Shown piece by piece: positions 25,565 to 57,682 of a stretch of 64,000 nt of DNA (the stretch's first letter is position 1; every line of letters starts with the position of its first letter). Position numbers and translations under genes: made by a program. The notes below the pieces were generated by a model. That model saw nothing but the letters and a program-made list of their open reading frames with translations. It had not been told where the DNA came from and did not search any database. The stretch covers positions 10,292,001-10,356,000 of the forward strand of contig CM035350.1 in the NCBI GenBank assembly GCA_020137815.1, given 5' to 3'. This DNA comes from Hormiphora californensis (Eukaryota > Animalia > Ctenophora).

Positions 25565-28500
25565 TCAACAACTATTCTCTGCCTGCTCAGACACGACAGT
25601 ATTTTCCTCACTGACACCTCCCAGCCTCTCCTCCTTGTTCCCCTCCCCCTTGGTCCCATCCTGGGAGGAGGATGGTAGTGCAGTGTTCAGCATCATTAGT
25701 TTAGTAATGTGAACTAAAGAGTTAGGTATCTCCCCTCCTTTACTAATGTGTATCTCCCCCTCAACCCTCCTATTCTCTTGGCTGGATATCTCGTGAGCAT
25801 GTAGCACCTCCTCCACAACATCAGTAGCAGCGAACTTCATGGTAGCCAGTGAGACCCTGTTAACTAGAGATCTGAATGATGGTTTTATAGGTGGCACATT
25901 CCCAGATATAGGGGTACAGCTAGGGAACATGTTGGGTGGTGGGGGTGTATCGTCAGGGATTATAAGGGTAGACCTGGCTGGCTGTCTTCTAACTCTCCTA
26001 GTTGTTACCCTCCTTCTCCTCTCCATATCCAGCTCGCTCAGGACATCTTCTTCCTGTGTTTTAGATTGGATAATATCAGCAGGTGTTGCTTGGCACACCA
26101 AACCATTCCGTCTCTCTACAGGTGATCCTTCACCACCAGTCCTTCTAATGAGCCTCAGTAGTAGTTTAGATATCAGGGAGTTGACAGTGCCGTCATACAA
26201 CAGGGGATTTATAACTGAGTTGATAGGGAGGAGGACAATAGAGAAGAAATCATAGTACCTAGTAGCATCAATAACCTCTACAGAGTGCAGCAGACATATG
26301 AATATAAAGGGGATCCAGCACAGGAAATCAGTGACAATGATAATAGTAACCTTCCTTTGTAATCTCTTACTCCGACTCTTCAACTGCTTGTTCCTCCCTC
26401 CCAGCTCCTCGGTAGACTTGCTGTTGATGAAGTGGATCATGAAGTAGGCGAATGTGATGGCTAGGAAGCACACAGTATTAACAAACAACACACCCCATAC
26501 AAACAATAGCTGGGGATCATCCATCGTCACGAAGTATTTGAAGAGACACACCCCAGCATTACCATAGAAGTGGACCTGCCTCGCATCAATCCCTCCATAC
26601 TCCTTACTGAACATCTGGGATGTCAGGATGGCTATGTAGCCCAACTAAGGGGCTTGCTCCTGAACCGCCCATAAAACTTCTTAAAGTGCTCATAGTGAGT
26701 CTGTTTCTTAACAATCCCAATTAAGTACCGGATTCCCCGGATAATGTATCCCGTTTACAAAGAAGTTCTCGAAAGTGGAAACCAGGGGCAGGACAGACAT
26801 TGTCAGTGCTGCGATTGTGATAACCCCAACTATCGCAAAAACACGAAGTGTTGTTCTGAATTGAAGGTTTCGTCTCAACATGACCCGTCCTTATCCTCCT
26901 CAACCTTAGCTATAGATAGTGCAGTCATTGAGAAGAGTGATAACTGTGTTCCTGCTGTGTTCAGTATCCCAAGCACTGCACAGGTATTAGAGGTGAGCCA
27001 GAGGTTCCTATCTTTACAATATGAATTATGAAGGTAGGAATTATAAGCGGATATAATGATGAGATACACCCCTACTAGCATATCTCCTGTTGCTATTAGT
27101 AGTATCAGTATACGGTTCAGTAGAGTGGTGGCTGATACTTTCCTGCAGATAGAACACAGGTTCCTGGTGATGATGATGGAGTTGAGGGAGGTAGCCAGGA
27201 CCCCCAGGACCCATCCCATGAACTCTAGTGTGTGTGATTGGATGATACGAGAGGAGCACAGTGGGTTGCATTCGTCAGCTAGGTTCCTACAGTCCTGGGC
27301 TCCATTACACACCGCTGATGTGTCCACTAGTTGGTCATCACTACAATTGAAATGGTTCTCACAACCCATCTCGTCACTCCAATCTCCACAGTCATTAACA
27401 AGGTCACATACAGCTGAATAGAGTACACACCTGCTGTTTGCACAGGAGAAGAGAGAGTTGTGGTATACCCCTGGCTGGTGGGGCATCCTCAGCACAAACG
27501 ACAGGTAGGAGTTGTCTGCCAGTGTATACAGCCTCCCCGGGTACTGTCCTACACAGGAGCCGTGGGTCAGGAGGGTGGAACGGACTGGGCAGACTGCCAA
27601 GACACCCTGGCACATGCCCAGACATGCCAGATACACGTACATCTCCCCAAACACGTTGCTACAATCCTGTTCCACTCTCAGGACTGAGAGGGAGGTCTCA
27701 GAGCGGCCCAGGATGTGGTGGAGAGGGTGGGAGAACTTGCGGAGAGAGCAGTTAGGAGCGAGGTGACGATGTCTCTCCAGCCCAGGGAGACACTGCCCAT
27801 TAAGGTACAATGTGGAGGAGAGGACGGGTAGTTTGGTAAAGAGATCAGGGGTGGTCCTGGCAACAGAGCAGACTCCCTCCTCCTCTGCACACTGTGGTTC
27901 CCCGTCACACATGGCAGAGAATTGTACATGTGTAGTGGAAGGATATCCACAGAGGAACACCTCCCCACAATCCACACCTTCCTCAGCATACCTCCTAGTG
28001 GAGGGGTTCTCTCCACAGGATGGTAGTTGGATGGTATCGTTCTCATCTGACCCATCCTTACAGTCCACCTCCCCGTCCCCTATCCATGAGGTAGGAAGTG
28101 GTAGTGCCACTTCCTCCCTCCCCGGACTGTAACGCCTCACACAGGAATAGGAGGAGGAGCAGATCCGTGATACTTCATCCCCTCCACTCACACAATCCAC
28201 CACCCCATCACATAACAGGTGTTTGTGAAGGGTACAAGTGTCCACTGGTTTACACATGTTCTCAAAATCCGTCATCACAGAGTGTGAGATCCTCCCTTCC
28301 GTGGCACACCATCCTATCCGCTACAGAGACAGGCCAGCCCTCCCTGGTACAATGTAGCTTGGCTCTGCTGGTGTCTGTACAGTTTAGTTGGTCTGTGTAG
28401 TCCTGACAGTAGGGCAGTACATTGTTAATCAGAACTGCACATCTAGTATAGTTCTCTAGTGGCACCAACCCGCCCTCAAAGTGTCCACTCTCACACAACA

Positions 28501-44376: not shown

Positions 44377-45015
44377 GTTCACACCTACAATCTATTAATC
44401 CATCTAAATCTTTGTAAATCTTGTAAATCTTGTAAAACCCTAACCCTACTTTAGCCCTAACCCTTAAAAAACCGTTTGTCAGCACTCCCAAAACACCCAG
44501 ATTTTAACGCTGCCCTTGGCATACGTTGCAGGCCCCTTATAATATGAGCTCAGGCCAAACGCGCGCGCGGCATTCCCTTCAGTCCCCTCGTTGCGGGGGT
44601 GCGCGCATGAGGGGGCTGCAGCGCATTCCAAACGCTGCCCTAAAAAACCGTTTGCCAGGACTCACCAAACACCCGCCCCACCAGTCTCTGCACTGGGGGG
44701 TTGATCGCGCGGCGTCAAAATCTGGGTTTTTGAGAGCGCGCAAAACCAAAATTTACGCCGCGCACGTACGCGCACGTTTTTTCGCTTCGAGAAAATCCCA
44801 AATTTTAAATTTGGTCACGTGTTTTTTAAAAATCTGGGTGCCTTCCATAGGGATCCCTAAAAAAGTTCAGTAGTTACACAGCGTTTACACAGTCTTTACT
44901 CAGTCGTTACACCCAGAGCGCCCGCGCCGCTCTGGGTGTAACGACTGCGTCTTTCGCACTCGATTTGCAGCGCTTATGGAAACTTGCCCTAGGTTTATGG
45001 AACTGCCCTAGGTTT

Positions 45016-46263
45016 ATGGAACCGCCCCTCATGGGCAGTCCGACGCTAATGGACGGGGTAGCCGCTTCTTCCTCCCATGTCCCTGATCCCACACACCAAC
45101 TCCAACAAGCGCTGATCAACGAGAACCTTCTTCACCTGTTGGACGAGGATTCTGAACTTCCTCCGAGAAACCCAGACCGAAAATCATTGTGGGCACTGCT
45201 AAAACAGTCATACCAGGCGGTATGTGCACTTACTGATGCTCTAGCTCTCAACACTCGCCAAACTCCTTCGTCCAATGAAAATGACCCTCTCGATAATCTC
45301 AATGTTATAGAAGACATGAACAATCACCTAGAAAAATTCAAGGAAGATATACTATCTGCAGTAACCGACAGAATTACTGCTGCGATGAAACCTCTGAACC
45401 AGGCAGCGCCATATGCTCATGCTACTGCTGCTGCTGCTGCTGCAACCCTTACGCCAGTCCGCACTCCTACCCTACCACCTAAACCGTCTTTCAGTGATAT
45501 TCCCAAACCAGCACTTCCGTGGCGAAAAATCTACATTGACTGTGAAGAGATTGATATCGACGAGGTCCAGAAGTTAAGTGAAAATGCTCTCTCCAAGACG
45601 AAAGTGTCAAGAATGGACAAAAAGAAAAACTTGGTCATCGTGACCGTACCAGAGAGTGAGGGTCAGAAAGCAGCTGACGCCCTTAGCACAGGTCTACGTA
45701 CTAAGACAGTAAGAGTGAGATCAGATCCAACAAGCAAACTCACGGTCCTAAATTTTCCCATCTCTGATTCTATTAATCAAGAAGACGATAGACGAAAACG
45801 AAGTGAAATCATCATAGAAGTCCTACAGGAGAAGAATCCAGAACTACAGGGCATTGCTGTGGATGTTGTGTCTTACAGAAAAAACTATCGGAATCCTGAA
45901 CTCGCTACCATCGGTCTACGCCTACCCACTCAAACAAAGAGACAACTCCTTCGCCAGAGGGTAGTCTTCGTTGGATACACTGCGTGTAACGTTGTCGACA
46001 GAGTACACGTGTTACAGTGCTACAATTGTCAAGGCTTCCATCACTCAGCAGCAGGCTGTGATCGAGACTCAGTGTGTGCACACTGCTCAAAAAACCACGA
46101 ATCAAAGGACTGTCCAGAAAAATCGAACACAGACTTTATTCCTTCATGTGTAAACTGTTCCCTGAATGGAAAGTCAAAGGACGATGTCTCCCACCGGGCA
46201 AACAGCACTGAGTGTCCGGCATACAAAGCTATATATGAAGCTACAAGGTCAAAAAACGAGTAG
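45016..46263 (+). CDS. LINE ORF1, gag-like nucleic-acid-binding protein with three zinc knuckles
   Basis: First in-frame ATG gives MEPPLM. Knuckles are CYNCQGFHHSAAGC, CAHCSKNHESKDC and CVNC..H......C. The ORF ends SKNE*. Confidence 0.88.
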   Translation: MEPPLMGSPTLMDGVAASSSHVPDPTHQLQQALINENLLHLLDEDSELPPRNPDRKSLWALLKQSYQAVCALTDALALNTRQTPSSNENDPLDNLNVIEDMNNHLEKFKEDILSAVTDRITAAMKPLNQAAPYAHATAAAAAATLTPVRTPTLPPKPSFSDIPKPALPWRKIYIDCEEIDIDEVQKLSENALSKTKVSRMDKKKNLVIVTVPESEGQKAADALSTGLRTKTVRVRSDPTSKLTVLNFPISDSINQEDDRRKRSEIIIEVLQEKNPELQGIAVDVVSYRKNYRNPELATIGLRLPTQTKRQLLRQRVVFVGYTACNVVDRVHVLQCYNCQGFHHSAAGCDRDSVCAHCSKNHESKDCPEKSNTDFIPSCVNCSLNGKSKDDVSHRANSTECPAYKAIYEATRSKNE

Positions 46264-49193
46264 AGGTAAAGTTGGCCACTCTGAACTGTTTTTCTCTGAG
46301 AAACAAGGTTGATGATATTTTACTGACTATCATAGACAATGATATTGATGCTGTTTGTTTGACCGAAACTTGGTTACATACTATTGAGAGTGCTATTGAG
46401 AGTCAAATTAGTGAGCTTGGGTATAGGTTAGTTAGTGTTGCACGTGGTTCTAGAGGGGGTGGTGTAGCTATTCTCATGAAAAACTCCTTTCATTTCACTC
46501 AGTTCAATCACTCTTTCTCATCAATGGAATGTATTGAATTATTGCTGACTCATTCAAACTGCATGCCGCTTCGATTACTTGGTGTATACCGCTCCCCATC
46601 CCAATCCCATTCGGTTTTCTTGGAGGAGTTCGAGACACTACTTCATGGTCTGGCTGAAAGGTCGGGAGAGGTCGTCATAACTGGTGATTTCAACATACAT
46701 GTACAGAACATACATGATAGTTTTGCCAAATCCTTCTGTGGACTCCTTGATGATCACTACTTTCACCAGTCGGTAAACACCGCCACTCATGTCTCAGGTG
46801 GAATACTCGATCTAGTTCTCACGAAGAATCTCCCTGATGCTCTTCCAATATCAAATCTTGCTGTAGAGATGACTCCTGCAGCTCCTGACCACGCACTGGT
46901 TTCGTTTAACCTTCCAATCGGGGCTCCAATTCAGCGGAAGGACTTCATCTCCATTCAACGACGGGATATCAAGAATTTGGATGTGGATGAACTTCGATGC
47001 ACCATACTGAAATCCCCACTCTGCGACACAGAAGAATTCCCTAGTGAACTGGTTGAGATCATTAAACTCTATGATGACCTTCTGTCCGAGTTTTTGGACG
47101 AACTTGCCCCGATTGAGAATAAGGTTGTTCCAGAAAATCCTAGCCCTCCCTGGTTTAATAGTGACTGTCAGGCGGCAAAACGGCGACGCAGGAAAGCCGA
47201 GCGTGATTTCAAGGCGTTACTGAAGAGAGATGTTCCCTCGCATATACTGGTTGAATCTCTGAGGAATCTCAGACGGGAGGCGAAAGAGGCATCACGGTTC
47301 ATCACTTCAACCAGAGACGACTACTATCGGAGGAAACTGGAAGAGGCTGGGAATGACCAATCGGTAATATATCGAATTACGAATGGATTACTTGGCAAGG
47401 AGAAGAATCCGAGCACACTACCGGAACATGATGACCCAGTTGATCTCTGTCAAAAATTCATTCAGTATTTCAAGGAAAAAGTGGACAAAATCTATTTGGA
47501 CATCAAGAAACTACGGACAGAAGACGTCACCAGAGGACCCGAAACTCCCAGCCCACCACAACTCGATTCCTTTCGTGCATTATCTAGTGAGGAGCTAGTT
47601 AAAATTGTTCGATCAATGAACTACAAACAATGTGACCTTGACCCTCTACCATCAAAACTGGTCGGAGAATGCATCCACGAACTGATGCCGATAATATTGG
47701 CTATTGTCAACGGTAGCCTTACTAGTGGAGTGTTTCCCTCTACATTGAAAAAGGCCATGATACGACCGGTTTACAAAGGGAAAGGACTCGACTCGAACAG
47801 CATGTCAAGTTATCGACCGATTTCTAATCTGAGTTTTATCTCAAAGATTATTGAAAAGTGCGTTGCTCTACAGATTACAGAACATCTGGAAAGCCATGGA
47901 CTTCTTGCCTCAGTTCAATCGGCATACAGACAGAAGCACTCCTGTGAAACAGCAACACTACGTATATTCAATGATCTGCTAGTTCTCACTGATAAACGGA
48001 ATAAGGCCGTTCTTCTCCTCTTGGATCTATCCGCTGCTTTCGACACAGTCCCTCACAACATTCTCATTAGCCGATTGGACAAGATGTATGGAATCAAAGG
48101 GGTGGCTCTTGAGTGGTTCCAGTCATATCTGAAAGACCGGGTAGCAGTTGTCAAAATTGGCAAAAGTCAATCACTTCCTGTTAACATCGAAATAGGTGTA
48201 CCGCAGGGATCCATCCTCGGTCCGTTACTTTTTATTCTGTTCACTAAGGACTTGGAAGCTATAGCGGCACGACACAAAACCAAGATTCACCTCTACGCTG
48301 ACGATTCTCAGCTCTATGTCAGCTTCACAAACGATGCCTGGAACGAATGTGAGTCTCAACTCAAAAAATGTTTCTTGGAAATTAAAGCATGGATGGCATC
48401 CAGTTACCTGAAACTAAACCCGGCAAAAACTGAGTTGATGTTCATTTCCTCTCGAACTGATAATAGTCCAAACCCACTGGATTATTCAGATCCTCTAACA
48501 TTGTGTGATGAGGAAGGACCCCTCTCGGCGACCATCTTTCCCTCCCGGAGTGCCAAGAATCTGGGTGTTGTCTTTGATGAAAAACTTACCATGAAAGAAC
48601 ATGTTTCAAAAGTTGTGAAGGAATGTAACTATAACCTTGTCAACCTCCGTAGAATTGGAAACAAGCTACAGAGAAGACACAAGGTTCAGCTGGTCCATTC
48701 GCTCATCCACTCTCGTCTGGACTACTGTAACGGCTTACTAATTGGTGCCGATAAATGTGACATTGCCAGATTGCAAAAAGTGCAGAACGCAGCGACTCGC
48801 TTTGTGTTTGGAAGGTGGCAGTGGAGGGGAGTTACAGACCTCAGGCGGCAATTACACTTTCTTCCAGTTGATGCTAGAATTGAATTTAAAATCTGTCTCA
48901 TGGTTTTCAAGTGTCTAAACAATCAAGCACCACAATATCTTCAAAATCTAATAAACAAACGTCAGAGGAAAGGAAAATCACTACGTCACGACGGTGATCT
49001 GACCCTTTTGGAAAGGGATTTTTCAACCAAGTACAAAACCACACAGCGTGCATTTCAAGTTTCAGGCCCGAGGATCTGGAATCAACTTCCCATTGACATT
49101 CGCAACTGTTCAGACGAGGAAACTTTCAAATCCAGACTCAAAACCCACCTGTTTGAAAAGTCGTATGGTGTTTGGGATGGACTGTCCCATTAA
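46239..49193 (+). CDS. LINE ORF2, APE endonuclease + reverse transcriptase (no ATG before the endonuclease motifs)
   Basis: Endonuclease motifs LNCFSL, CLTETW, GGGVAI, VYRSP, GDFNIH, LDLV and DH. RT motifs YRPISNL, QSAYR, DLSAAFDTV, GVPQGSILGP and YADDSQLY. L2-type C-terminus SRLDYCN..LQKVQNAA..LHFLPV..FKSRLKTHLF. Confidence 0.95.
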   Translation, partial: SYKVKKRVEVKLATLNCFSLRNKVDDILLTIIDNDIDAVCLTETWLHTIESAIESQISELGYRLVSVARGSRGGGVAILMKNSFHFTQFNHSFSSMECIELLLTHSNCMPLRLLGVYRSPSQSHSVFLEEFETLLHGLAERSGEVVITGDFNIHVQNIHDSFAKSFCGLLDDHYFHQSVNTATHVSGGILDLVLTKNLPDALPISNLAVEMTPAAPDHALVSFNLPIGAPIQRKDFISIQRRDIKNLDVDELRCTILKSPLCDTEEFPSELVEIIKLYDDLLSEFLDELAPIENKVVPENPSPPWFNSDCQAAKRRRRKAERDFKALLKRDVPSHILVESLRNLRREAKEASRFITSTRDDYYRRKLEEAGNDQSVIYRITNGLLGKEKNPSTLPEHDDPVDLCQKFIQYFKEKVDKIYLDIKKLRTEDVTRGPETPSPPQLDSFRALSSEELVKIVRSMNYKQCDLDPLPSKLVGECIHELMPIILAIVNGSLTSGVFPSTLKKAMIRPVYKGKGLDSNSMSSYRPISNLSFISKIIEKCVALQITEHLESHGLLASVQSAYRQKHSCETATLRIFNDLLVLTDKRNKAVLLLLDLSAAFDTVPHNILISRLDKMYGIKGVALEWFQSYLKDRVAVVKIGKSQSLPVNIEIGVPQGSILGPLLFILFTKDLEAIAARHKTKIHLYADDSQLYVSFTNDAWNECESQLKKCFLEIKAWMASSYLKLNPAKTELMFISSRTDNSPNPLDYSDPLTLCDEEGPLSATIFPSRSAKNLGVVFDEKLTMKEHVSKVVKECNYNLVNLRRIGNKLQRRHKVQLVHSLIHSRLDYCNGLLIGADKCDIARLQKVQNAATRFVFGRWQWRGVTDLRRQLHFLPVDARIEFKICLMVFKCLNNQAPQYLQNLINKRQRKGKSLRHDGDLTLLERDFSTKYKTTQRAFQVSGPRIWNQLPIDIRNCSDEETFKSRLKTHLFEKSYGVWDGLSH

Positions 49194-50276
49194 TTTATGT
49201 GTACATCTATACGTCCGCTGCATGCATTGAGCTTCAGAATTATGGAGCAGTGATTCGCTCCACTCTTTTATTTCGTGATTAATCTCTTTTCTATGTAACT
49301 TATTACATTGATTTAACATATATTTTCATACATATAATTATTTCTTACTTAATCAAAAACATTAATTTATTATCTAATTATTATCATCATATCTGGGCTA
49401 TTAATATCACTCATATCATCTTTCTTTTCCACTTTGGGTTCACCGCTTTAGAAGGCTGGTAGGAGTGCTCTGGCGCTCATCGAGTAATTTTGTATGACGT
49501 TTATCACTCTTACTATTATTAGTCAAAAAGCGGGATGTTAAATGTACATTTTGATTGATTGATTGATTGACTTTTTCGCCGCGGCGCTCAGTTCTCACAA
49601 TTGTGCAGCACACAATCCAATATTTTCTTGCAAATAGCACCTGTGCGCAGCACGCGCCGCTCTGGGTGTAACGACTGAGTAACGACTGTGTAAACGCTGT
49701 GTAAGTACTGAACTTTTTTAGGGATCCCTATTGCTAACAACTCATTGATTTTAGCGGTCGAGACGGGTTAGGGCTGTTGTTAGGGTCGAGTTAGGATTTT
49801 GTTTGGGGTTATCGGTTAGGGCTATCGATTCTCTATCAGATACCGTTTAGAATACTCGAATTGGCCATAATAAGTCGGTCCGGAAAATAAAAGTGTACTC
49901 TTTTTGCTACCGTGCGGCGTGCACCTGTAAACAGACTGCAAGGCACCCAGATTATAATCGCGCCATGTTAAATCCCTCACTTGGTATTATGAAACTTCGC
50001 ACGGTCATTGCTCCACCCCCTGATGAGATTGAGGTTAGGTAGATTATGTCGAGTTCTTCAAGTCTATCTCATCAGGGAGTGGAGTTATGCACGTGGCTTT
50101 TTGTGGTAGATAATAGGCAAAAACATCATAAATCAGTTTTTGAACTAAAACAATACTATGGTACACCCGCACACGTGTTCCTTTTAAGTTTTATCACATG
50201 TTTTTGTCTCGAACACAAGAAGGATGAATATTACTCATACAGGTTACCGAATTAACCCACGTGTCACTTTTTGATT

Positions 50277-52274
50277 CTACTGACTAGATTTTTCATCAAT
50301 TTTCCTGCTTTCACGACGACCCTTCATGTCCTGTAGTTCGATGCTGGCAGTCTGTGCAACATGGATGATTCCTAGTGAGCTGGCGATCTTTCTGTTCCAC
50401 CTGAGAAGCACCCTAATAACAGCGTCCCCATTGTAAATGATGGGGTTGAGGACGCTATTGATTGGGATCAGGAGGATGGAGCAGAACTCATAGAGATTAT
50501 TGCCATCCCAAATACCGTTGTAATGCAGGAACGACAGTGTAATGAATGGGATCCAGGTAGCAAAGTCTGTTGCTATAATCAGAGATATCTTCCTCTGGAG
50601 CCGCCTCATCGATGATCTGCTCTGTTTAGATTCAGAAGTCCCCGCATCTTTTGATGTTTGTTGTGTGTGGGCGATGATCAGGGCATAGCTGATTGTGATG
50701 ATGATGAAGCACACTAGGTTACTGCTCAACACGTAGATGGAGTAGAGATGCTGGGGGTCAGTATCCTTTACGAAGTATTTGAAGAGACAAACACCGCTAT
50801 TGCCATAGAAACCAATACTCATCGACAAATCAGTATACGGGAACGTTTGATTACAACTTGTGTAAGCTGGATCTGTTTCCTGAAAGATGAACGCAATGAG
50901 CCTCCTCCAATTATCCCATGTCATTTCATCACTGTTGTACCCAGAGCCAGGGAGATATGCAGCGAAACTAGTGTTCAGTTCACTCTTTGATTTACTGTCG
51001 GTGATAACGGGGTTACCCTTATAATACAGTCCGTTAACAAAGTAGTCCTCGAACACCTTGAGGATGGGGATGAGGCCTATTGCGAGGGAGTAGGTAACAA
51101 TAGTAACTACTGTTAGGACAATAAGCAGGACCTTCTTCTTACTGAGGGAGGAGAATATCAACATTGTCTTGATGGAGATCAGCCTGAAAACAGATAACAA
51201 TGTCATAGAGAGGAGAGATAGCTGGTTACCAAATGTGCTAACTACACCAATAAACCCGCAGGGGTCACTAGAGAGCCATATCAGCCTATCCTTGCAGTAA
51301 TCTTCACCATAATGCTGGTCGTAAGAGAAGACCAGTACCATATATATCCCCACAGAGAAGTCACCCAGAGCGATGTTGAACTTGCCATGACGCCAGGCAG
51401 ACAGGGGGCTGCAAAGACATGGGTGTTCTCCGATAGAGAGCCATCCAGCCTCTCCGAGCTGGAACTACACGCACTCTCCTCCTCGCTTGGATAACCGTTC
51501 TCCACTACTGGACAGTCTACATAACCATCACAGAACTTGTCTGATTGGATGCTGAAGAAGATTAGTTCAACGCCCCAGGGGCACCGGTACATGGTGTCGT
51601 TTACTGTACCGATGGTATTGATGTACCGGTAGTAGTTAGTTGTGACATCATCTATGATAAGACAATCCTCATCCTCGCCATCGTCACACACCCTCTCCAG
51701 ATCACATTCCAATGTCTCGTCTATTGATGTTTTGTAGCCGCTCACTGCACAGTACAGATTTGTTTCAGCAGTGTGGTCGGATGTACAGTTGACCCATGTT
51801 CTCCACTTGTCGTCACAATACACATTGGTCTCTTGGTAGTTGAATGCGTCACACAGTTGAAACGTATATACGGTGTTGCTGAAAAGGGTGAATTAGGGGA
51901 TGAAAGGTATAGACGGTGTTGCTGAAAGGGGTGAATTAGGGGATGGAACGTATAGACGGTGTTGCTGAAAAGGGGGTGAATTAGGGGATGGAACGTATAT
52001 ACGGTGTTGCTGAAAAGGGGGTGAATTAGGGGAAGGGAGGCAAAGGAACACACACTATAAGTTTCCGGGCGGGGGATTAAGATGATATAAGTGATATATT
52101 TACACGCTGGATTGTTTAGAAGCTGGATGTATTGTTACCTGGTCCCATTAAGAGTACAGTTAAGGGCCTCATATTCAGTGGTACAAAGTTCTGACGTGGT
52201 GACTGTAGTGCTGGAGCAAATTAGATCAGAGAAACAGTAGTTTTTAGGTGGGATCCATTTCGTTAACTTGTTGC
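50277..52274 (-). pseudogene. LDLa-GPCR copy A with a frameshifting ~640 bp internal deletion (lacks late LDLa repeats and TM1)
   Basis: Near-identical to 52921-54017 at the 3' end. At ~51375 it jumps to sequence matching 54659 onward. An upstream exon lies at ~52139-52274 (NKLTKWIPPKNYCFSDLIC). Confidence 0.75.
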
Positions 52275-52920
52275 TGGAAGGGAGAATTGTTATGCACGCG
52301 CCGCTCTGGGTGTAACGACTGAGTAACGACTGTGTAAACGCTGTGTAAGTACTGAACTTTTTTAGGGATCCCTATTGCTAACAACTCATTGATTTTAGCG
52401 GTCGAGACGGGTTAGGGCTGTTGTTAGGGTCGAGTTAGGATTTTGTTTGGGGTTATCGGTTAGGGCTATCGATTCTCTATCAGATACCGTTTAGAATACT
52501 CGAATTGGCCATAATAAGTCGGTCCGGAAAATAAAAGTGTACTCTTTTTGCTACCGTGCGGCGTGCACCTGTAAACAGACTGCAAGGCACCCAGATTATA
52601 ATCGCGCCATGTTAAATCCCTCACTTGGTATTATGAAACTTCGCACGGTCATTGCTCCACCCCCTGATGAGATTGAGGTTAGGTAGATTATGTCGAGTTC
52701 TTCAAGTCTATCTCATCAGGGAGTGGAGTTATGCACGTGGCTTTTTGTGGTAGATAATAGGCAAAAACATCATAAATCAGTTTTTGAACTAAAACAATAC
52801 TATGGTACACCCGCACACGTGTTCCTTTTAAGTTTTATCACATGTTTTTGTCTCGAACACAAGAAGGATGAATATTACTCATACAGGTTACCGAATTAAC
52901 CCACGTGTCACTTTTTGATT

Positions 52921-55171
52921 CTACTGACTAGATTTTTCATCAATTTTCCTGCTTTCACGACGACCCTTCATGTCCTGTAGTTCGATGCTGGCAGTCTGTG
53001 CAACATGGATGATTCCTAGTGAGCTGGCGATCTTTCTGTTCCACCTGAGAAGCACCCTAATAACAGCGTCCCCATTGTAAATGATGGGGTTGAGGACGCT
53101 ATTGATTGGGATCAGGAGGATGGAGCAGAACTCATAGAGATTATTGCCATCCCAAATACCGTTGTAATGCAGGAACGACAGTGTAATGAATGGGATCCAG
53201 GTAGCAAAGTCTGTTGCTATAATCAGAGATATCTTCCTCTGGAGCCGCCTCATCGATGATCTGCTCTGTTTAGATTCAGAAGTCCCCGCATCTTTTGATG
53301 TTTGTTGTGTGTGGGCGATGATCAGGGCATAGCTGATTGTGATGATGATGAAGCACACTAGGTTACTGCTCAACACGTAGATGGAGTAGAGATGCTGGGG
53401 GTCAGTATCCTTACGAAGTATTTGAAGAGACAAACACCGCTATTGCCATAGAAACCAATACTCATCGACAAATCAGTATACGGGAACGTTTGATTACAAC
53501 TTGTGTAAGCTGGATCTGTTTCCTGAAAGATGAACGCAATGAGCCTCCTCCAATTATCCCATGTCATTTCATCACTGTTGTACCCAGAGCCAGGGAGATA
53601 TGCAGCGAAACTAGTGTTCAGTTCACTCTTTGATTTACTGTCGGTGATAACGGGGTTACCCTTATAATACAGTCCGTTAACAAAGTAGTCTTCGAACACC
53701 TTGAGGATGGGGATGAGGCCTATTGCGAGGGAGTAGGTAACAATAGTAACTACTGTCAGGACAATAAGCAGGACCTTCTTCTTACTGAGGGAAGAGAATA
53801 TCAACATTGTCTTGATGGAGATCAGCCTGAAAACAGATAACAATGTCATAGAGAGGAGAGATAGCTGGTTACCAAATGTGCTAACTACACCAATAAACCC
53901 GCAGGGGTCACTAGAGAGCCATATCAGCCTATCCTTGCAGTAATCTTCACCATAATGCTGGTCGTAAGAGAAGACCAGTACCATATATATCCCCACAGAG
54001 AAGTCACCCAGAGCGATCAGTGCCACAAGGATGTCGTTTGTTAGCAGGCTAAATGAAATGTCCTTTGTCGTCAATAGCATCTTGAAAAACATTACCAGGG
54101 ATACTAAGTTGACGACGAGAGAGAAGAGGCCAAAAGTGATTGCGATGCCCCTATAAAAAGGGGTCGTAATCATCCGCCAGACGACAGTGCTGTCCTTGCA
54201 TCCCTCATCACACTCGTCGCTCTTATCAGTACAGTCAAACACCGTGTCGCACACCTGAGTCTTCTTAATAGTTGTGTTATCCGTCCCACAGGTGAAACGA
54301 TTCAGACAGTTCTTCTCGTCCGAGTCATCACCACAGTCATTAATGTAGTCACACACCTTGCTTGAAGCGATCATGATATCGTTGGAGCAAGTGAATATCG
54401 TGTCGGTTGCACTTCCATTGTAAAGCAAGGAGCCAACATCAGACAGGTTATTGAAGAGAGAGTACACTGTGGTGTATCCACTCAGACCCTCTGTTGTAGT
54501 ATCCAGATCTTCAGAGTAGTCCAGTGTGTCGCAGAGATCTGCTGTCACTGCAAGTACATAAACCTCCCCTCCCGTGTTAGGCGCAGTCAAAAGAGGCATG
54601 ATCGTAGTGGAGGTACTTGGTTATACCATACCCCAGTTCAACTTCTATCACAGTGCATGTTGAACTTGCCATGACGCCAGGCAGACAGGGGGCTGCAAAG
54701 ACATGGGTGTTCTCTGATAGATACCCATCCAGCCTCTCCGAGCTGGAACTACACGCGCTCTCCTCCTCACTAGGATAACCGTTCTCCACCACTGGGCAAT
54801 CTACATAACCATCACAGAACTTGTCTGATTGGATGGTAAAGAAGATGAGTTCTACCCCCCAGGGGCACCGGTACATGGTGTAGTCCTCCTCTACTTTGTC
54901 ATTGATAGTGTTGATGTACCGGTAATAGTTAGTAGTAACATCATCTATGATAAGACAGTCCTCATCTTCACCGTCGTCACACACCCTCTCCAGATCACAT
55001 TCCAATGTCTCGTCTATTGATGTTTTGTAGCCGCCCACTGCACAGTACAGATTTGTTTCATCAGTGTGGTCGGATGTACAGTTGACCCATGTTCTCCACT
55101 TGTCGTCACAATACACATTGGTCTCTTGGTAGTTGAACGCATCACACAGTTGAAACGTATAGACGGTGTTG
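52921..55171 (-). CDS. LDLa-GPCR copy B, large terminal exon; 5' exons absent
   Basis: LDLa repeats (CDYINDCGDDSDE, CDTVFDCTDKSDE) and 7TM motifs ALGDFSVGIY, FYGNSGVCLFKYF, IATDFATWIPF and PINSVLNPIIY. Single-base frameshifts at ~53410 and ~54590. Confidence 0.8.
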
Positions 55172-55203
55172 CTGAAAAGGGTGAATTTGGGGCCAGTTTT
55201 TAG

Positions 55204-57682
55204 CTCGGTACAAGGAACACAACCATTAGTGGAAACTCCTGTCAAAACTGGGTCAACTACACTAGTTACGAGTTAGTTGTTAGTTGGGGTGGGGTGGGGT
55301 GGGGTGGGGTGGAGGGGTGGGGTGGGTCAACTACACCAGTTACGAGTTAGTTTCAATGGGGTGGGGTGGGGTGGGGTGGTGGGGTGGGGTGGTGGGGTGG
55401 GTGGAGGGTCAACTACACCAGTTACGAGTTAGTTTCAATGGGGTGGGGTGGGGTGGAGAGGGGTGGGATGGGGGGATGGGGTCAACTACACCAGTTACGA
55501 GTTAGTTGTTAGTTGGGGTGGGGTGGAGGGGTGGGGTGGAGGGGTGGGGTGGGTGGGGGTGAGGGAACCCCCCCCCCCCTCTAACTACACCAGTTACGAG
55601 TTAGTTTCAATGGGGTGGGTGGGGTGGAGGAGGGGTGGGATGGAGGGATGGGGTCAACTACACCAGTTACGAGTTAGTTGTTAGTTGGGGTGGGGTGGAG
55701 GGGTGGGGTGGGGTGGGGTGGAGGGAACCCCCCCCCCCTCTCAACTACACCAGTTACGAGTTATTTCAATGGGGTGGGGTGGGGTGGGGTGGAGGAGGGT
55801 GGGATGGGGTCAACTACACAGTTATGAGTTAGTTGTTAGTCGACCACCCCCCCCCCTCTCAACTACACCAGTTACGAGTTAGTTGTTAGTCGACCCCCCC
55901 CTACACCAGTTACGAGTTAGTTGTTAGTCGACCCATCAAATAGTAATAACTAGACAACCCATCAGATAGAGGCATCTTATAGTGTTCCTTTATAAACCGG
56001 GTTGTCGAAGTTATCTGAATTTCCACTCCAGAGAGGGTATTTACGGAGTTGGTGATCACAATTACTGTAGAAACCTAGACTTTGCACTGGAAGTACCCTG
56101 GTGTTACATCAACAATGTCACACTCCTAAAGGAAAAGTGTTTCCCCTCAACCCCATGCAGTGAGTTAAATTCCTTCGGCCTTCTGATATAATTAATATTT
56201 TAATTAACCTAACTTGATTAATTAACCTAACTAGTTCAATCAACCTAACTTGATTAATTAACCTAACTAGTTCAATTAATTAACCTAACTTGTTCGATCA
56301 TTAACCTAACTTAATTAATTAACCTAACTTGTTCAATTAACCTAACTTGTTCAGCATGTTGGAGTGGGTCTCAGACCTCTTATCGGGGTTACAAGAATCA
56401 CACTGTATCGGGGATCACTTGCCAACCATGGTCCTCCCAATCACCTCAAGAGCATGACTATACCCCAGAGAAGTAAGCTAATTCCTCCATCCCCCCCCCC
56501 CTTAGTGATCAATCAAACAGTTGCATTATATTGTTGTAATTCAGTGATCAATCAAACAGCTGCATTATATTGTTGTGATTCAATCAAACTCCTCCATTTT
56601 GCGCCAGTGTAGGGGTGGCCACGTCACCAACCATTTCAACATTTCTCCCATTCTAGCTACCCGAATGAGGGCTTGGACTCAAACTACTGTAGAAATCCAA
56701 GTGGAAGCAAAGCGTGGTGTTACTCAGAAGACAAATCTGTAAGATGGGGCTATTGTGATCTCCCATCTTGTAACCTCGATATTGCCGGTAAGAGCCCAAT
56801 GAAAACAGCAAAGTGCTAATGTATTTGAGTCAAGACACCACTTCCTAATACCTAGAAAACTGTCGATACTATGCTGCGTACTTTTATCGTGGAAATATCA
56901 ACAAAAGCGAAGACGGGACCCAGTGCGAGAGTTATTGTCGGAGAGTTGTGGAGCCTGGGGATAGTTGGACAAAACCAATCTGTTACACAGATATTACCAA
57001 CACATCATCCCATCAAATATGTAGTCTCACAGACGTCTGCAACGACTTTACTTATCGTAAGCAATCTGTAACTTCAATTTACCTTGAACTACTCCGGAAA
57101 AATACTATATTTCAAGATTACTCTCTTACTAAAGAACACTTCGTTCACACAGTGTGCGGGGACGAGGAGGATTCTTATGCAACATACACTGGAAGTTACG
57201 CTGTCACGGAGACTGGGTGGGAGTGTAGAGACTGGTCTGATGTCCTGGATACCGCAACCCTGGCATTGTACCCCACTCTGGAGCACAACTACTGTAGAAA
57301 TGTTAATGGGTCGGAGCTCAATAAGACTAGAGCGTGGTGCTACTCTACCAACCCTGATGAAGAGTTCGAGTTCTGTTCCATACCGTCATGCTCTGACATA
57401 GGTAATATGCAAGAAATACATCTTTCTAAATCTTCATTGAGTCTGATTTCAGTTGGAAGTAACTCGTCCTATCTCCTGGAAACGTGGCAAACAGACATCA
57501 CGGATGGGGAAGTTACCACTGCTAACCTTACTTGTACTGCCACTATCACACTACTGAATCAAGAGCCCTTTGTTCATAAAGTTGAGGTGTCCATTGAACA
57601 GGTCCCTTCAGAAAGTAAGATTAAATTAATTGCAACATGTCGAACCACTTCATTCATCAGTGGAATTTGGTTGAAAATATAA
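55204..57682 (+). CDS. Multi-kringle protein (4 kringle-like domains), 5' end missing
   Basis: Exons give GTRNTTISGNSCQNW|..HNYCRNLD..PWCY, YRGYKNHTVSGITCQPW|..NYCRNPSGSKAWCY, YRGNINKSEDGTQCESYCR and YTGSYAVTETGWECRDW..HNYCRN..AWCY. The stop at 57682 is followed by AATAAA. Confidence 0.82.

Follow-up and report, generated by a model that had tools for sequence, protein, structure and literature searches.

How does a long interspersed nuclear element (LINE) make its endonuclease and reverse transcriptase (RT) when the second of its two open reading frames (ORFs) has no AUG ahead of the first catalytic residues? The question is raised by a LINE of the ctenophore Hormiphora californensis (GenBank assembly GCA_020137815.1), found in 64,000 nucleotides of contig CM035350.1 (forward-strand positions 10,292,001 to 10,356,000); this whole stretch is the window analysed here, and all positions are counted from its first letter. 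A single full-length element lies at about 44950-49570 on the + strand with both ORFs intact, and self-BLAST revealed no second copy within the 64-kb window. It is likely, judging from related elements, that a programmed -1 ribosomal frameshift on the heptamer A_AAA_AAC produces an ORF1-ORF2 fusion of about 1392 aa. The features on which this depends are:

45016..46263, + strand: Gag-like ORF1 of 415 aa, counted from its first in-frame ATG, with three C-terminal Cys/His knuckles and the terminus S-K-N-E-stop
46239..49193, + strand: ORF2, 984 codons from stop to stop in the -1 frame, encoding endonuclease and RT; predicted entry at 46257
46251..46257, + strand: slippery heptamer A_AAA_AAC in ORF1 phase, the predicted -1 shift site
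46261..46263, + strand: ORF1 stop TAG, one codon past the heptamer
46263..46286, + strand: first endonuclease beta-strand (E9-N16) in an AlphaFold model, its last residue being the Asn aligned with the N-terminal Asn motif of the human L1 endonuclease (profile alignment to 8sxt)
46272..46274, + strand: candidate non-AUG start, a TTG with a good Kozak context (aagTTGg) lying 8 nt past the ORF1 stop
46476..46478, + strand: first ORF2 ATG (codon 80), preceded by two helices and four strands of the predicted endonuclease fold

The final ORF1 codons, TCA AAA AAC GAG TAG, place the heptamer in X_XXY_YYZ phase within the open -1 overlap, as a sequence-only reading of this DNA had described. That reading had also put ORF2 in the -1 frame, open from 46239, and its first ATG after the endonuclease motifs; both hold, the frame running on to 49193 and the codons of N16 (46284) and E43 (46365) preceding the ATG at 46476. 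In a profile alignment these ORF2 Asn and Glu motifs match their counterparts in L1 ORF2p, where the two residues are catalytic. AlphaFold modelling of ORF2 residues 1-229 (47 sequences, mean predicted local distance difference test score 94.4) places strand one at E9-N16, followed by three further strands and two helices ahead of residue 81, and the predicted fold agrees with the endonuclease structures of L1 and TRAS1. According to the model, a protein begun at the first ATG would lack four strands together with the two N-terminal catalytic motifs, and residues K5-K6-R7 of the ORF2 frame, at the shift site, sit just ahead of the first strand. With the ATG at 46235 lying in the +1 frame, and with no AUG that overlaps or adjoins the ORF1 stop in register with ORF2, the stop-start arrangement of SART1-type coupling is not present here.

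A lone heptamer is weak evidence. The + strand of the window contains AAAAAAC eight times, and a single occurrence is not unusual, since ORF1 holds two further in-phase copies, which serve as internal controls:

45879..45885, + strand: internal A_AAA_AAC, in phase, not conserved; the -1 frame shuts after 6 codons
46089..46095, + strand: internal A_AAA_AAC, in phase, not conserved; the -1 frame shuts after 40 codons; broken in the contig of a second organism (organism B)

The case for frameshifting therefore rests on conservation of the terminal site. Copies of the junction were examined in public contigs from four of 22 runs, aligned on 45900-46700; three of the four cover the junction and one (X8) stops short of it. 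One contig (run X4, depth 374) has no differences over 45900-46376 and is possibly from the window's own sample. The contig of organism B (run X7), from a copy about 95 % identical, differs by 40 substitutions across 45918-46700, all of them outside 46249-46294; its changes at 46087 and 46089 destroy the internal heptamer at 46089, and the terminal heptamer is kept. A sister family gives alignments of at least 80 % only at one knuckle and the junction, where the 18 bases 46248-46265 are identical in X7. Among the contig alignments listed for the four runs there are no indels in 45900-46700. The sequence-only reading would have been undermined by a family consensus with another ORF phase or an upstream ATG; neither an indel nor an upstream in-frame ATG is seen in the family copies among these alignments. 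Likewise, a one-A indel bringing the ATG at 46235 into frame was considered and is rejected on the listed alignments.

More distant families were reached by a metagenome scan with the ORF1 alignment, which returned 80 loci; 36 junctions could be read, and at the other 44 ORF1 ran off the end or no endonuclease match was present. All four loci of the same clade (L003, L004, L005 and L006) read an in-phase A_AAA_AAC, at only about 25-32 % identity to the window in ORF1 and 34-37 % at the ORF2 start. ORF2 lies in the -1 frame with the heptamer inside the overlap in L003, L004 and L006; L005 is too short for this and reads like L003. There is no ATG ahead of the catalytic Asn in L003 or L006. Of these loci L006 appears to be the most telling: its 12 bases from the heptamer on match the window, but TAC stands in place of TAG, so that ORF1 is 16 codons longer, the stop falls 6 codons before the Asn, the heptamer lies 48 nt upstream of the stop and the context is L-K-N. 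The 33 other Gag-type LINE junctions that could be read, several of them near-duplicates, have ORF2 in the -1 frame (19), in the +1 frame (12) or in frame (two). An ATG precedes the Asn motif in 31 of the 33 (27 by rule, four by eye), the remaining two being one in-frame UGA and one broken junction. None of the 19 other -1 junctions has a heptamer in the overlap, and one +1 control has A_AAA_AAT beside its stop. Because AAA makes up 54 % of Lys codons, AAC 36 % of Asn codons and A-ending codons 28 % in these ORF1s, the heptamer appears to be conserved beyond what the protein needs. The check proposed beforehand, of the heptamer and the -1 overlap across relatives, thus came out in favour: the heptamer is kept in the 95 % identical copy, the sister family and the four distant loci, and the -1 overlap in the three of these loci long enough to show it.

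In the in-frame UGA junction among the controls (L035), a single TGA with C as the next base divides ORF1 from ORF2, which share one frame, and 322 codons pass without an ATG; the junction is a candidate for stop read-through in another LINE. Scans of viral contigs gave no relevant match.

At the protein level, the four close ORF1 homologues (43-50 % identity) all end in [ST]-K-N-x (TKNQ, SKNQ, SKNE and SKNW), and the internal KN sites of the window ORF1 are not kept in them. With 149 new matches the set grew to 153 homologues; in 57 of them KN begins 2-4 residues from the C-terminus, compared with a background of 0.0066 for each position. A quick IQ-TREE analysis of 144 rows (10 of 154 left out), midpoint-rooted, splits the ORF1s into 89 and 55 at a branch with a Shimodaira-Hasegawa-like approximate likelihood ratio test value of 98. 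On the window's side 74 of the 89 have KN within the last 20 residues, as opposed to three of the 55 opposite; no control dipeptide exceeds 18 of 89. The residue before KN (n=74) is S in 55, P in six, T in five, A in four and another in four, so that 70 of the 74 have a residue codable as NCA. C-terminal dipeptides able to hide an ATG, such as Tyr-Gly, are present in 37 of the 55 on the other side and 18 of the 89 on the window's side. The position of KN varies, from 2 to 20 residues from the ORF1 end.

A subgroup on the KN side (P0135, P0146, P0157, P0164, P0176, P0183 and P0203) lacks KN and has a terminus near I/V-P-F-Y/H-Q; its I-P-F could be coded as another heptamer (C_CCU_UUY), or another route may be used. 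Sister ORF1s P0002 and P0003 share the C-terminal two-thirds with the window ORF1 and P0001; the N-termini differ, P0002 and P0003 having a PHD-like Cys/His region (a weak Pfam match, below cut-off) and the window a region that looks helical and is unrelated to it. P0125-P0127 and P0259 proved to be unrelated multi-copy gene models and were set aside.

The ORF2 side of the junction is consistent with the same site. Among the 37 other ORF2 proteins of the clade, the called start falls after the catalytic Asn in 17 and 1-6 residues before it in five, while six reach back to [FLIV]-K-K-[LH], the -1 reading of TCA AAA AAC (S-K-N). When 81 ORF2 N-termini were tested for codon compatibility with 153 ORF1 C-termini, five of these six K-K-extended ORF2s gave -1 runs of 9-12 compatible codons, all through ORF1 ends with S-K-N. 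At the protein level, each of the six has a called Met further upstream, at a place within the overlap; this Met mostly falls where ORF1 codes its last knuckle Cys and may therefore be incidental.

With a conserved terminal heptamer and no AUG before the first catalytic residues, a -1 slip, with the enzyme as an extension of ORF1, is the likely route. The majority of ribosomes would terminate at TAG and release the 415-aa ORF1p; the smaller share, with tRNA-Lys and tRNA-Asn paired to the heptamer, would move one base backwards. The transframe product would read ...S-K-N/R-V-E-V-K-L..., entering the endonuclease two residues ahead of its first strand. Such frameshifting would give a low ORF2:ORF1 ratio and tether the enzyme to an RNA-binding protein, and since no recognised protease family is coded, the fusion would probably stay uncut. 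The retrovirus-style Gag-Pol fusion suggested by the sequence-only reading is supported to this extent, by the kept -1 phase and heptamer.

Several observations pull the other way. The two internal in-phase heptamers of ORF1 must be tolerated. The count of 74 in 89 was made on proteins, with a search profile that itself ended in KN and so favoured such matches, and related ORF1 rows share labels and are not independent. The +1 control of the codon-compatibility test gave one 9-codon run, from a Ser/Leu-rich pair, and nine of the 37 clade ORF2s, again at the protein level, have a called start at least 7 residues before the Asn, seven of them at 10-11. In L004 there is an ATG 5 nt past the stop, with ACG at that place in L003 and L005. 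A stimulator was also sought and not found: folds 3′ of the heptamer were no better than shuffles in the window and in L003-L006 (z -0.96 to +1.6), the best H-type pseudoknots at four junctions were equalled by 10, 6, 8 and 24 of 30 shuffles, and the best pairing between junction and 3′ end, calculated for the window only (-6.3 kcal/mol), was equalled by 156 of 200 shuffles. The stem or pseudoknot that the sequence-only reading proposed to look for downstream thus did not appear in the window folds or the pseudoknot search when set against shuffles. Its word "canonical" fits the heptamer and does not fit the rest of the signal; with downstream structure tested and not found, the junction is not a canonical member of the retroviral-type class.

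Two individual hairpins and one long-range contact were considered as stimulators. A weak hairpin in the window (-10.7 kcal/mol), 5 nt downstream, is at shuffle level and has no counterpart in L003 or L004. The hairpin at 46287-46305 is ruled out, being 29 nt away and having one pair broken in organism B, and pairing with the 3′ end of the element is ruled out at shuffle level; the 3′ end folds on itself (z -2.6).

Some of these points would suit termination at TAG and reinitiation just past it, at the TTG in the window and at ATG or ACG in relatives, giving a free ORF2p, with the A-rich heptamer as part of the reinitiation signal. We consider this unlikely, although it is the strongest competitor. 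In its favour are the aagTTGg context of the TTG at 8 nt past the stop, which counts against frameshifting, the ATG and ACG at 5 nt, the seven called starts 10-11 residues before the Asn, and the lack of a stimulator in folds, pseudoknots and 3′-end pairing. There is also precedent: the accounts given in PMC2881922, PMC10275272 and PMC3894237 report UAAUG stop-start coupling for SART1 and unconventional reinitiation for human L1, and describe reinitiation or entry through an internal ribosome entry site (IRES)-like element as the routes to ORF2 in LINEs. Those elements likewise have a bicistronic RNA, with ORF2 output tied to ORF1 translation, but they make free ORF2p, whereas this LINE has no AUG overlapping or following the stop. 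A start at the TTG would, in the AlphaFold model, cut three of the eight residues of the first endonuclease strand, and the start codon is not conserved across families. In L006 there are only 6 codons between the stop and the Asn, none of them ATG, and the heptamer is 48 nt upstream; more generally, heptamer phase stays constant while the stop moves, KN lying anywhere from 2 to 20 residues from the end. Frameshifting and reinitiation could coexist in some families.

Transcriptional slippage, in which the polymerase adds one A in the run of six and some RNAs fuse ORF1 to ORF2, is very unlikely. The run is conserved, one extra A yields the -1 frame and no RNA stimulator would be necessary, which fits the null fold results. 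Slippage, however, would do without a set codon phase, whereas the run is read as Lys-Asn throughout, and six A's are short for slippage by RNA polymerase II. Slipped RNAs would also be copied by reverse transcription, yet the DNA contigs list no insertion, bearing in mind that contigs drop rare variants.

It is highly improbable that S-K-N is simply an end motif of ORF1p, with the heptamer a by-product of codon choice and ORF2 reached by IRES-like entry or from a separate transcript. Ser before KN in 55 of 74 goes beyond what the heptamer requires, and the survey is mostly at the protein level. Nevertheless, xxA AAA AAC is found in four of four families read as DNA despite the codon usage given above, the six K-K extensions of ORF2 imply the same codons, and L006 has KN in an L-K-N context, 16 codons ahead of the stop.

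The prospect that the frames are joined by RNA splicing, or by an indel arising in the assembly or confined to this copy, is practically negligible: a database gene model (P0005) does run from SKN into the endonuclease, minus its first strand, and GT and AG sites lie near the junction, but 25 of 26 in-frame GT-AG joints remove the Asn motif and the last has poor splice sites, on which grounds splicing across the junction was rejected, and no indel is present in the aligned contigs listed. The P0005 fusion is probably an intron invented across a frameshift.

The preferred reading, a -1 frameshift at the terminal heptamer, can be set beside known systems. A_AAA_AAC is the shift site of mouse mammary tumour virus gag-pro, and with retroviral gag-pro and gag-pol junctions this LINE shares the heptamer, the phase, an ORF ending in zinc knuckles and an enzyme ORF in the -1 frame. 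Unlike them, it is an element that lacks long terminal repeats (a non-LTR element), with no protease or integrase family and no detected 3′ hairpin or pseudoknot. The heptamer is among the most shift-prone for mammalian ribosomes (PMC5009743, whose LINE discussion, in the part available, is limited to HeT-A, TART and L1). The sequence-only reading held that well-studied LINEs use reinitiation or coupling; this stands for SART1 and L1, but there is a LINE precedent for -1 shifting. According to a statement in a review (PMC5911963), Dictyostelium TRE5-A and TRE3-A both need a -1 frameshift for ORF2. Like the present LINE, these are apurinic/apyrimidinic endonuclease (APE)-type non-LTR elements with two overlapping ORFs; they are amoebozoan, target tRNA genes and are known here through that statement, whereas the present site has been traced across a clade with Gag-type ORF1s. 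In Paramecium LINEs, recoding for ORF2 was proposed from consensus sequences (PMC5405496), by a +1 shift, reinitiation or stop read-through as opposed to -1.

The junction signal, on comparative grounds, is taken to be real and conserved, and to be a -1 heptamer variant of kinds of recoding known from LINEs and retroviruses. Early CR1 papers reportedly noted overlapping ORFs. The word "frameshift" is absent from the available parts of two surveys of CR1/L2 ORF1s (PMC4120745 and PMC13343379), as is "overlap" from those of the first, and the parts of PMC5443660 and PMC5006619 that were available add nothing further on this junction. No account of this shift site was found in the literature searched, which did not extend to subscription papers, Repbase notes or supplements. 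PMC3894237, PMC5009743 and PMC2881922 call LINE ORF2 translation an open question, and frameshifting, if it takes place, would answer it for this clade. The working enzyme of these LINEs would then be an ORF1-ORF2 fusion, database ORF2 models called from the first Met would lack catalytic residues, and Gag:Pol ratio control of the retroviral style would extend to non-LTR elements. The conserved heptamer offers a single-site test of ORF2 translation, and with no stimulator found the site is of interest to specialists in recoding. A pause caused by the adjacent stop codon or by a trans-acting factor is a guess. More tentatively, and rather doubtfully at present, a whole clade of animal Gag-type LINEs (dozens of families at <50 % identity) may make endonuclease-RT only as an uncut fusion through a structure-free A_AAA_AAC shift, with the pause coming from the stop codon or a protein factor; this would be a structure-free eukaryotic -1 signal.

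The remaining features of the element are:

46018..46215, + strand: three zinc-knuckle region, C334-C399 of a 414-aa query, with 10 Cys/His columns invariant across 61 aligned ORF1s
47802..48569, + strand: RT domain, ORF2 residues 522-777 (Pfam RVT_1, E 5.8e-31)
49430..49571, + strand: 3′ end of the element, with two predicted hairpins (z -2.6 against shuffles) and a (GATT)4 tail at 49553-49568

In-frame ATGs of ORF1 are at 45016, 45031 and 45049. The window ORF1 protein has no Pfam match; its homologue P0138 matches zf-CCHC, and the three CCHC knuckles suggest a type I (Gag-like) ORF1. Type I ORF1s of L2/CR1 lineages have an RRM and three CCHC, in subgroups L2_2, L2_8 and CR1_3 (PMC4120745). 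Like these elements, the LINE has a three-knuckle ORF1 before an ORF2 that may be of the CR1/L2 group, and the sister ORF1s show the weak PHD match. It is of APE type, with Pfam Exo_endo_phos and RVT_1 in ORF2 and a simple-repeat 3′ tail. The Pfam search recognised only endonuclease and RT families, with no protease or integrase among them, and self-BLAST found no LTRs, its hits being limited to short inverted arms on either side and a direct match of 31 nt that forms part of these arms. The RT contains the motif LHFLP, which we take to be a mark of the L2 group. In a FastTree phylogeny of 127 rows (nine of 136 left out), made up of search homologues with no named clade references, the window RT falls in a 38-row clade (0.996) nested in a 106-row group (0.991) of search homologues including fish RTs. 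The label of L2-group LINE in the sequence-only reading fits as a broad one, short of an exact clade.

The 5′ arm of the last 3′-end hairpin (GTCAAAAA, about 49522) has the same letters as the shift site, so that weak pairing (-4.3 kcal/mol) of the 3′ tail with either one is conceivable; this is likely to be chance. The LINE is flanked by arms of 73-74 nt, inverted and 97 % identical, of a small inverted-repeat element (44847-44950 and 49650-49730), and the right arm with the DNA beyond it recurs at 52294-52375 without the LINE. On the minus strand, 25565-28320, 50277-51892 and 52921-55272 hold several related receptor genes with long exons, LDLa repeats and a seven-transmembrane region of rhodopsin type, of which the copies at 50277 and 52921 look duplicated.

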